Source of the DNA: a virus
Lineage: Duplodnaviria > Caudoviricetes
Virus record (IMG/VR): IMGVR_UViG_3300030397_000466
Location: 1 to 60,298 of that record
DNA: 60,298 nt
Direction: 5' to 3' (one strand)
The position numbers and the translations under genes are program-made. Position 1 is the stretch's first letter; every line of letters starts with the position of its first letter. The notes below the pieces were generated by a model, which worked only from the letters and a program-made list of their open reading frames with translations, was not told the DNA's origin and made no database searches. This document shows, piece by piece, positions 16,228-17,645 of the stretch.

Positions 16228-16462
16228 TGAAGATTATATTATGTATCAGAACATGGAAGAGGCACTTGGAAATAAAGACATTTCAGGTTTTATTCTTCAT
16301 ACCTATAATTTCAATACAATAGAAAAAGCATGAAAGATATATCAAAGCAAGCTAAAATCTGATCCAAACACAGGTATAAACTATTTCCTGTATCTTCTGG
16401 GGAATCTAAAAGAAGAATTCCCAAATCACACTAACCCAGAAAGGAAAGTTCTTCATGAGTAA
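16214..16462 (+). CDS. 82 aa protein with in-frame TGA (possible replication accessory protein)
   Basis: AAGGA RBS; TIEKA[TGA]KIYQ at 16331; reading through reaches TAA overlapping the dnaB ATG. Confidence 0.65.
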
Positions 16463-17645
16463 TACACTTGAAAAGTCTGTTCTTAGTTATTATGCTAAGG
16501 GCGGAACCGTTAAAGCACAATTAGACACTCAACACTTCTCAAATCCTGTGCACGGTAAAATCTGAGAAAAAATTCTTGCATGTGATATACCAACTGACAT
16601 AGCAGAGCTTAGTCTGGTTCTTACTCCAGATGAACTTGAATATGTAAGAAGCCACTCAGAGTCTTCCACTGATGACAATGTAATAAAGCACGCTACACAC
16701 CTAAGAAATATTTGAAGGCAAAGTGAGCGTATTCGGGTATTAACCGATATTAATAAGAAGGTGGGAAACAAAGAGAGTATTGATGAAGACCTAAAAACAT
16801 TCATGGCGTTGGGTGATGTAGAAGATAGATCACCTCAAAAGTCTATGGACAATGCACTGGAGAATTTGAGAGCAGGATTTCCTGTTATTGAAACAAGAAT
16901 ACCATATATTGACGAGTCTGCAAAAGGCCTAACCAGAGGTGAAATGAGTATTATTGCTGGCAGGCCAGGAAATGGCAAATCATCTCTTGCCATAAATATA
17001 GCAATGCAGCTTGCAAGAAATGGAAACAAGGTGGTATTCTTTTCAAGGGAAATGACCAAAGAACAGCTAATGGGCAGGATACTGTCTAATGAATTACGCA
17101 TAGACAGTAGACAGTTCAGAGGAAAGCTTTCTAAAACTCTTGACAAAACACTTTCAGAGCATTCACCAAAGATTCTTGAAAAATATAAGAATTTGTTAAT
17201 AGTAGATGATGTATGGGAACTGGATGGGACACTAAGAATACTTAACACCTTTGAACCTGACGTATTTATTGATGATTACGTTCAGCTTACAGAGGGTGAT
17301 ATAGGTTCTATGAAGGGAGATAGTCCACGATTTGAAATAAAGCAAGTTCTTAATGCTTACAAGCAACACTGTAAGCGGCTTAATATGCACGGTATAATTG
17401 TGTCTCAAATGAACCGAGAGGTTGAAAAGAGACTAACTTTCGTTCCTATGATGTCTGACCTTGCAGAAGCAGCCTTTCTTGAGCATGCAGCAGAGATGAT
17501 ACTATTCACTATGTATCCTCATGTTTACAATGCGAAGGAAGATAAAAATAAATTTATTGTATTCTGTAAGAAGTCAAGATACGGGAGCGTAGGAACCTAC
17601 GAGATTGTTTATGAGCCAGAATTTCAGAACTTTAAAGCTTCTTAA
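16455..17645 (+). CDS. dnaB: DnaB-like replicative helicase, 396 aa with two in-frame TGA
   Basis: AGRPGNGKS, FSREM, IDDYVQL, SQMNR, KSRYG; N-domain HFSNPVHGKI[TGA]EKI and LRNI[TGA]RQ are in frame. Confidence 0.88.

Follow-up and report, generated by a model that had tools for sequence, protein, structure and literature searches.

A phage dnaB-family helicase gene with two in-frame TGA codons and its possible dependence on poor UGA termination

The dnaB-family helicase gene of an aquatic tailed phage (Duplodnaviria; Caudoviricetes), known from the IMG/VR virus record IMGVR_UViG_3300030397_000466, starts 306 bases 5′ of the position given by standard gene calling, and two in-frame TGA codons, at 16563 and 16713, interrupt the additional N-terminal region. 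The window that we analysed is the entire record (60,298 nucleotides (nt), 39.5% GC). Three further sense TGAs are found in the two adjacent upstream genes, one of which, an annealing-protein-like gene, carries a prfB-type +1 frameshift cassette near its 5′ end. We favour, with a probability of roughly 0.55, the reading that the N-terminal region of this helicase is made only when the two UGAs are read as tryptophan, and that the replication module is gated by poor UGA termination.

The helicase gene comprises the following elements.

16455..17645, + strand: full dnaB-family helicase gene, 396 codons with both TGAs taken as sense; the frame runs into the ATPase domain
16440..16448, + strand: Shine-Dalgarno-like sequence AAAGGAAAG 5′ of the true dnaB start, from the sequence and a scan for Shine-Dalgarno (SD) motifs
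16455..16760, + strand: hidden N-terminal region, 102 codons, coding in this frame only and homologous to the N-terminus of the relative P0125
16563..16565, + strand: first TGA of dnaB, codon 37, on an aromatic alignment column
16713..16715, + strand: second TGA of dnaB, codon 87, within a long model helix (residues 73-104), on an alignment-dependent column
16887..17636, + strand: DnaB_C RecA-type ATPase domain, residues 145-394 (Pfam PF03796, E 3.8e-44, 151.4 bits against a cut-off of 27)

An initial annotation, made from the sequence alone, had placed a DnaB N-terminal domain behind two TGA codons, and its coordinates were borne out: ATG 16455-16457, TGA 16563-16565 and TGA 16713-16715 are all in frame, and the peptide that it quoted matches the sequence. 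The two TGAs are the only interruptions of the 396-codon frame, which is closed by TAA 17643-17645. Under translation table 11 the open reading frame (ORF) reduces to GTG 16761..17645 (294 residues), in agreement with the dnaB start at 16761 in the ORF track, and the stored gene call of the record (P0002) is this truncated form (294 residues, 100% identity, 74% of the query). The frame contains no TAA or TAG in the 117 codons between 16410 and 16760 (P ~0.0012 at the local base composition), and over 16455-16760 the codon-usage log-likelihood is +19.7 bits in this frame only, with values of -37 to -87 for the other five. ATG 16455 is preceded by a well-spaced AAAGGA ribosome-binding site and the start overlaps the stop of the upstream gene by 8 nt; GTG 16761 lacks a spaced SD sequence and is simply the first start codon past the second TGA. 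For comparison, the scan of the window found an SD-like motif at 54 of the 78 called genes versus 9% of random positions. Initiation at GTG 16761 would moreover open the protein within the predicted long helix of residues 73-104. A strong start at 16761, which the initial annotation had named as one of two observations that would speak against it, was looked for in the sequence and was not seen. The gene opens at ATG 16455, and the table-11 call lacks the N-terminal region.

The residues encoded by the sense TGAs were assessed from homologous columns. The dnaB alignment comprised the query and 49 proteins (the 5 nearest database proteins, 40 of 80 IMG/VR relatives and 4 bacterial DnaB proteins); the 49 were picked by hand, the 40 IMG/VR relatives after removal of duplicates and truncated calls. 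The column of the first TGA is occupied by Trp in 38, Phe in 8 and Tyr in 3 of the 49 proteins; it holds Trp in all five nearest relatives that cover the N-terminus and an aromatic residue in 17 of 17 sequences of alignment A1. The second TGA sits in a helix along which the alignment slides, and its exact column is ambiguous: Tyr 28, Phe 7 and His 6 of 49 in one version, Trp in four of the five nearest relatives with Leu in the closest in another, and Val in a third. Gly occurs at neither dnaB column (0/49 and 0/49) and in no alignment. The preference of the initial annotation for Trp over Gly is thereby supported, and its expectation of aromatic residues at both stops holds for the first (49/49); at the second, it holds in the alignments that give an aromatic residue or His in 41 of 49 proteins or Trp in 4 of 5, but not in the one that gives Val. 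The two TGAs of the annealing-protein-like gene fall on columns with Trp in 37 of 37 sequences and with Trp in 34 and Phe in 3 of 37, Gly being absent from both (0/37). Three of the five sense TGAs are accordingly found on Trp-dominated columns (37/37, 34/37 and 38/49) and a fourth on an aromatic or Trp column, depending on the alignment; the fifth, at 16331, lies in a small gene without homologues and has no aligned column. That five of five nonsense changes should all be TGG>TGA by chance has P <=1.6e-4 with a transition bias as high as 10, which speaks against random decay as the source of the five TGAs.

Two other origins of the TGAs were considered and rejected. For selenocysteine insertion, the folding energies downstream of the five TGAs lie between the 25th and 93rd percentile of background, and Cys appears once in 49 sequences, at one column only. 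For G-to-A hypermutation, the GC content is 0.39-0.43 at 14.8-16 kb compared with 0.31-0.35 in the flanks, the GC skew is only slightly lower, and no signature was seen. Searches for TGG/TGA alternation in close relatives returned one distant locus among viral contigs (query P0001), 68 loci among metagenome contigs (query P0125; none above 39% identity, most at 22-35%) and 17 loci among genome contigs (<=33% identity), the last giving no host lead. The database calls of the nearest helicase relatives (P0003, P0122, P0123 and P0124, 56-62% identical) are N-terminally short, with 240 and 91 residues, and start inside the ATPase domain; the full-length member of this cluster, in the same range of identity, is P0125, with 402 residues. 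In-frame stops in these relatives, too, would fit such short calls.

The C-terminal part of the protein is unambiguously a DnaB_C domain, with the Gly and Lys of the P-loop (Walker A) invariant in alignments A1 and A3. The initial annotation had likened the hidden region to the DnaB N-terminal domain and had proposed profile and structure comparisons of the code-4 translation as a check. The likeness stands as regards position, length, homology to a relative and fold match of the full-length protein, with the similarity of the segment's own sequence being weak. With the Pfam DnaB-N profile (PF00772), whose cut-off is 23 bits, the segment reaches 14.7 bits (E 0.033, residues 16-43 only) and so stays below threshold, and a six-frame search of the record with this profile returned no match at E up to 1. 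The nearest relative, P0125, likewise fails against this profile (no match at E up to 1); P0004 and P0006 pass. A single-sequence hhalign comparison, with X at both TGAs, against the N-domains of the 40 relatives gave E 0.42, and hmmsearch with the relatives' N-domain profile gave 0.2 bits, a score reached by 381 of 2000 shuffles. An AlphaFold model of the N-domain alone has a mean confidence score (pLDDT) of 68, and Foldseek found no match for it at E <=0.001, the best rows being DnaB chains at E 2.4-4.

Comparisons that draw on relatives or on the whole protein gave a different picture. The N-terminal segment is 31% identical to the uninterrupted N-terminus of P0125, the closest full-length relative, over 78 residues (BLASTP E 8e-6 when five sequences were compared; E 0.017 once X replaced the TGAs), and a profile of this pair matches the N-domain profile of the 40 phage DnaB relatives over 91 columns (hhalign E 7e-4). 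The family profile in turn finds full-length DnaB 2r6a (E 1e-135) and the isolated E. coli N-domain (E 2.7e-23) in the PDB. The full-length AlphaFold model has a pLDDT of 88, with residues 1-110 mostly at 82-92 and the block 41-50 at 65, and it aligns to solved DnaB structures from residue 1-3 onward, over 384-390 of 396 residues at 3.4-3.7 Å (VIA-align; 4esv_J, Z 33.7, 384 residues at 3.7 Å, model range 3..396; 7t21_A, 390 residues at 3.4 Å). ATPase-only structures align to the model only from residue 123. Built as it was on an alignment of DnaB relatives, this model is not independent of homology. We read the first ~100 residues, on the strength of the alignments and the model, as a probable short, fast-evolving and diverged DnaB N-terminal domain. 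The predicted fold would share the two-domain layout of the solved helicases 4esv, 7t21, 8a3v and phage G40P 3bgw (N-terminal helical domain, linker helix and RecA-type ATPase), aligning over 381-390 of its 396 residues, and differs from them in being ~50 residues shorter (396 versus roughly 440-470) and in the strong divergence of its N-domain. In known DnaB helicases the N-terminal domain forms the collar that meets primase.

The two genes preceding dnaB hold the other sense TGAs.

16214..16462, + strand: small gene, 82 codons, with in-frame TGA 16331-16333; SD sequence and ATG, codon-usage score positive in this frame only
14887..15454, + strand: annealing-protein-like gene, an 18-codon leader followed by a body in the +1 frame, with TGAs 15059-15061 and 15119-15121; 38 homologues
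14930..14944, + strand: prfB-type +1 frameshift cassette by motif match: GGAGG, a 3-nt spacer, CUU UGA, then U

No homologues of the small gene 16214-16462 were found besides the record's own call. ORF 14900-15454 has 38 homologues lying 5′ of dnaB among 149 loci searched, which provided 37 informative rows; PHROG matches are weak only, and the name annealing protein is a provisional one suggested by synteny and known motifs. Ahead of the conserved region this ORF lacks a start codon, and ATG 14887, which is led by an SD sequence, lies in the -1 frame with respect to the ORF. The cassette is in phase with this ATG and is composed of GGAGG (14930-14934), the spacer TGT, CTT (14938-14940) and TGA (14941-14943), with T at 14944. 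The window contains a single exact copy of the motif (0.08 expected), and one is found in eight of 100 shuffles; only ~18 in-phase positions would be usable, so that its placement should be far less likely than these motif odds. Among the six + strand CTTTGA sites in 1-21.7 kb, only 14938-14943 is in phase with an ORF (frames worked out by hand). A hidden Markov model of the 38 homologues aligns from the first +1-frame codon past the cassette, and a start at ATG 15020 loses 14 bits.

The described elements of the prfB cassette are an SD-like G-rich element, a spacer and CUU UGA followed by C (bioRxiv 10.64898/2026.01.08.698412; PMC3711429). The phage sequence shares with it the G-rich SD-like element, the one-codon spacer, an early CUU UGA and a conserved body in the +1 frame; the shifty stop stands at codon 18-19 here and, in the P. 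fluorescens prfB described there, after 24 codons. It differs in the gene that carries it, a phage annealing-protein homologue, in the spacer (UGU versus UAU/UCU), in U instead of C after UGA, and in that the frameshift is a predicted one.

The use of TGA was then compared across the genome. Gene lists for this purpose were simple greedy longest-ORF calls curated by eye. Tryptophan is encoded by 279 codons, 274 of them TGG and five sense TGA; all five sense TGAs fall in the three adjacent genes at 14.9-16.8 kb, which belong to the recombination/replication module and hold 8 of the 279 Trp codons (P 4e-9). Four TGAs, all in the early region, act or appear to act as stops, and the late genes form one block.

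2992..2994, + strand: TGA as stop, in an ATGA overlap with the next, SD-led gene
3330..3332, + strand: TGA as stop, in an ATGA overlap; position 112/116 of the phrog_26268 profile is reached at residue 111/113
9586..9588, + strand: TGA apparently a stop, judged from gene spacing; the next gene starts within ~40 nt
11576..11578, + strand: TGA apparently the stop of a RimK-like gene, judged from the ORF layout; a TAA follows 6 codons later
21742..58300, - strand: late (virion) block, 34 called genes, with the large terminase (TerL), portal and major head protein identified

The 34 late genes contain 169 TGG and no sense TGA codons, and their stops are TAA in 22 and TAG in 12 cases, TGA in none. 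Real TGA stops end 4 of 68 ORFs, versus 217 of 951 (23%) in 63 related loci (P 1.8e-4), these being the loci of at least 8 kb among 80 with the same type of helicase; the dnaB gene follows the standard code in every one of the 80. For the late genes alone, the corresponding figures are 0 of 34 here versus 11 of 56 ORFs in nine phage loci whose portals are 46-50% identical (P 6e-4). All four TGA stops occur within the first 22 of the 78 genes (P 0.005) and none in the remaining 56, and each of the four TGA-ended early genes has a backup TAA or TAG 6 to 53 codons further on. When the TGA-ended gene 2281-2994 was read through, no homologues were found besides the record's own call. Collectively, the genome is zoned: TGA is first a stop, then for a short stretch apparently Trp, and is then absent from a large stretch. 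Because the late genes are UGA-free and the four early UGA stops have backups, the rest of the genome is written in a manner indifferent to the meaning of UGA.

The sequence of this region is well supported and comes from an abundant population. Contigs from three runs of one aquatic-metagenome study reproduce 11155-18200 at a depth of 142-316 with at most one difference (13817), and a 169-nt contig from a fourth run is identical across TGA 16563; all four runs belong to the same study and three of them may be source runs of the record, so that the agreement indicates consistency rather than full independence. Position 13817, the sole between-run consensus difference in 11-18 kb, is G in the record and one run and A in the contigs of two runs. 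The same runs also contain lower-depth contigs (7-34x versus 140-530x) that match 2381-2971 and 6317-7050 with many differences and diverged replacements, which suggests that a related strain with variable early genes occurs alongside this phage.

The record contains a single tRNA gene, which is not a suppressor.

5158..5232, + strand: tRNA-Arg(UCU), found by ARAGORN and Rfam (67.8 bits; anticodon loop CUUCUAA)

Two further candidates were rejected: a 'tca' candidate of 65 nt that lies within a late ORF (23495-23559) has mismatched stems, and a 97-nt candidate at 1716-1812 is malformed, also with mismatched stems. No read-through hairpins or selenocysteine insertion sequence (SECIS) elements were found after the sense TGAs.

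The reading that we favour can be set out as a sequence of conditional steps. Low or outcompeted release factor 2 (RF2) activity would make UGA termination poor; ribosomes would then frameshift +1 at the shifty stop of the annealing gene, as in prfB when RF2 is scarce, and the plain UGAs would be decoded slowly as Trp, the decoder being a near-cognate host tRNA-Trp or an unrecognised suppressor. The outcome would be full-length annealing protein and helicase, with expression of the module made conditional; highly expressed virion genes would avoid UGA, and early genes might still end in it. A hungry UGA favours the prfB-type shift, as in prfB autoregulation, and for this reason slow rather than efficient decoding of UGA fits. 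An efficient decoder is further disfavoured because TGA would then spread among the Trp codons and the shifty stop would be read into a dead end. Under a fully standard code, in turn, the phage would make no annealing protein, and its helicase would lack the N-terminal part.

Several results weigh against this reading. Two near-cognate read-throughs in a single gene would yield very little full-length DnaB unless termination were strongly impaired. No UCA-anticodon tRNA of acceptable structure was found in the record by ARAGORN or Rfam, at loose thresholds too, and a six-frame search revealed no release factor or tryptophanyl-tRNA synthetase (TrpRS) domains; a suppressor may lie on a missing genome end, which is conceivable because the record lacks terminal repeats. 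The bases that follow sense and stop TGAs are the same, and no downstream structure distinguishes the two groups. No operon boundary was found between the TGA-stop and the TGA-sense genes: promoter-like matches number 77 versus 72 by chance, and there is no + strand terminator. Within the cassette, the shifty stop is followed by U, where prfB has C. Upstream of it, the slip site CAA AAA G (14905-14911) also joins the two frames with the same score (69.2 versus 69.9 bits), so CUU UGA is likely, rather than proven, to be the frameshift site. The gene counts, finally, come from a simple longest-ORF procedure and not from a trained gene finder.

Taken one step further, the phage might itself time its recombination/replication module by sensing or causing a drop in RF2. 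In this tentative extension, the shifty stop would serve as the RF2 sensor, ordinary tRNA-Trp would read the UGAs only under such conditions, and virion genes would have been purged of UGA so that they end cleanly. If true, this RF2 gate would work through stop codons without requiring a suppressor tRNA, and its layout would be the reverse of the published late-gene gate.

An efficient TGA-to-Trp switch driven by the phage, operating on a different gene set through a factor that is unrecognised or encoded on the missing genome end, appears unlikely. According to the preprint by Borges et al., suppressor tRNAs are detectable in only 35% of TGA-recoded phages, and TGA-stop depletion is proposed to precede recoding (bioRxiv 10.1101/2021.08.26.457843); the present record is linear without end repeats and includes 1-kb stretches without called genes, both of which leave room for such a factor. 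Set against this are the lack of an acceptable UCA tRNA, release factor or TrpRS in the record and the finding that TGA accounts for just 5 of the 279 Trp codons, with no late gene among those affected, which is unexpected under an efficient decoder. Such a decoder would also pass CUU UGA into the dead-end frame.

A host that uses code 4 (UGA = Trp, no RF2) would have everything translated, with all TGAs, including the four early gene ends, meaning Trp and the genome being nearly TGA-free by history or through standard-code hosts; we give this explanation a low probability. The purge of TGA stops from 56 of 56 genes past 11.6 kb and the ratio of TAG stops (19-21) to TGA stops (4) agree with it, and phages compatible with two codes, with no in-frame TGA and clustered stops at gene ends, are described for code-25 hosts by Liu et al. 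(PMC10746230). Two consecutive ATGA overlaps onto SD-led genes speak against it, as does the end of a family profile at one of the two TGAs, and read-through at the early TGAs would give overlaps of 66-160 nt. Moreover, 98% of Trp codons are TGG despite a GC content of 39.5%, the relatives of both the replication and the virion module use the standard code with TGA stops, and a shifty stop would work poorly in the presence of a cognate UGA decoder. Code 4 is known in bacteria from Mollicutes and insect symbionts and is not known from free-living aquatic species.

It is improbable that the TGAs are plain stops, with the annealing gene, the small gene and the helicase N-terminus inactive or dispensable and at most a truncated helicase produced from an internal start. 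This explanation can point to the 294-codon table-11 ORF from GTG 16761, to the additional frame change in the annealing gene and to the four other genes that end in TGA. Every tested stop, however, lies on a Trp or aromatic column and all five are TGA, at the P value given above; no TAA, TAG or further frame break occurs in ~370 codons and the coding signal is kept; GTG 16761 has no SD sequence and would start inside a long helix; and the genotype is the consensus in the contigs of three runs at a depth of 142-316. That TGA means glycine (code 25), as in Gracilibacteria, Absconditabacteria and their phages, is very improbable: such hosts are present in aquatic samples, and in-frame TGA can be almost lacking in their phages (PMC10746230), yet Gly is absent from both dnaB and both annealing-gene columns, and TGG->TGA is a synonymous route for Trp, not for Gly. 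The probability of a sequencing or assembly artefact, for which nothing was found in favour, is negligible, as the high-depth contigs of three runs match at every base and the fourth run covers TGA 16563 unchanged.

In the preprint by Borges et al., it is the structural and lysis genes in which TGA-to-Trp codons concentrate, the replication genes being standard or 'variably' recoded, and a standard-code relative of the phage Agate has TGA stops in 4 of 146 cases (bioRxiv 10.1101/2021.08.26.457843). With the code-4 phages Agate and Jade, as described there, the phage shares in-frame TGA at Trp sites, standard-code relatives, a depletion of TGA stops and a suppressor tRNA that often escapes detection. 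Unlike in Agate and Jade, none of the 169 late Trp codons is TGA, all five sense TGAs lie in recombination/replication genes, just 2% of Trp codons are affected and four early genes still end in TGA. The two-code phages of Liu et al. (PMC10746230) are similar in that in-frame TGA is near zero and other stops follow close behind the gene ends; they have no in-frame TGA at all and are linked to code-25 (Gly) hosts, in contrast to the five in-frame TGAs at Trp columns seen here. In the literature we found no report of sense TGAs confined to replication genes or of a prfB-type cassette in a phage gene, which describes the outcome of our search and is no claim of absence from print. As a case of a phage with TGA = Trp the finding is ordinary; what is unusual is the location of the codons, their small number, the lack of a decoder and the RF2-type frameshift signal. 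The layout reverses the published pattern of late-gene recoding.

The remainder of the genome provides the setting for these genes. CheckV estimates the completeness of the record at 100%, with no terminal repeats. The early and replication genes are on the + strand (0.1-21.7 kb) and include a phiEco32-like peptide-ligase set, a PD-(D/E)XK nuclease, the annealing-protein homologue and DnaB; the virion genes occupy the - strand (21.7-58.3 kb) and include the large terminase, portal and major head protein together with two giant ORFs (2453 and 1255 codons). Most proteins of the phage have no family assignment. A search of the named-phage collection matched 784 records, all below 60% identity, with two weak matches for the portal, and yielded no close named phage. 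The peptide-ligase-type cluster at 3981-14877, directly 5′ of the TGA-sense genes, contains the following genes.

3981-4559, + strand: gamma-glutamyl cyclotransferase-like gene (weak)
7931-8353, + strand: gamma-glutamyl cyclotransferase-like gene (clear)
9624-10238, + strand: phiEco32-like COOH-NH2 ligase gene
10700-11578, + strand: RimK-like ATP-grasp gene
13007-13966, + strand: amidoligase-like gene
13954-14877, + strand: class-II glutamine amidotransferase gene

In the late block, the giant ORFs at 25502-32863 (2453 codons) and 21742-25509 (1255 codons), both on the - strand, belong to no PHROG family and contain zero TGA. The large terminase gene (52584-55235, - strand) is unusually long, with 883 residues, and its two halves (61-418 and 432-868) match different terminase PHROG profiles. 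Between the convergent genes 17684-18151 (+ strand) and 18182-18847 (- strand), the latter encoding an RNase H-fold exonuclease, a strong hairpin (18155-18182), rich in G+C and flanked by a T run on either side, is likely a bidirectional terminator. Two stretches of ~1 kb, 1292-2280 and 58300-59313, have no convincing gene.

Taken together, standard-code gene calling cuts the helicase of this phage to 294 residues and misses or truncates two neighbouring genes, and databases already hold the short form. Stop-codon recoding in phages has been published as a late-gene phenomenon with suppressor tRNAs, and here it is recombination and replication genes that contain the sense codons, with no decoder found. 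If the signals described above work together, the efficiency of host UGA termination, and not a new tRNA, could act as a developmental switch of the phage, and codon reassignment would be seen here at an early or an alternative stage.

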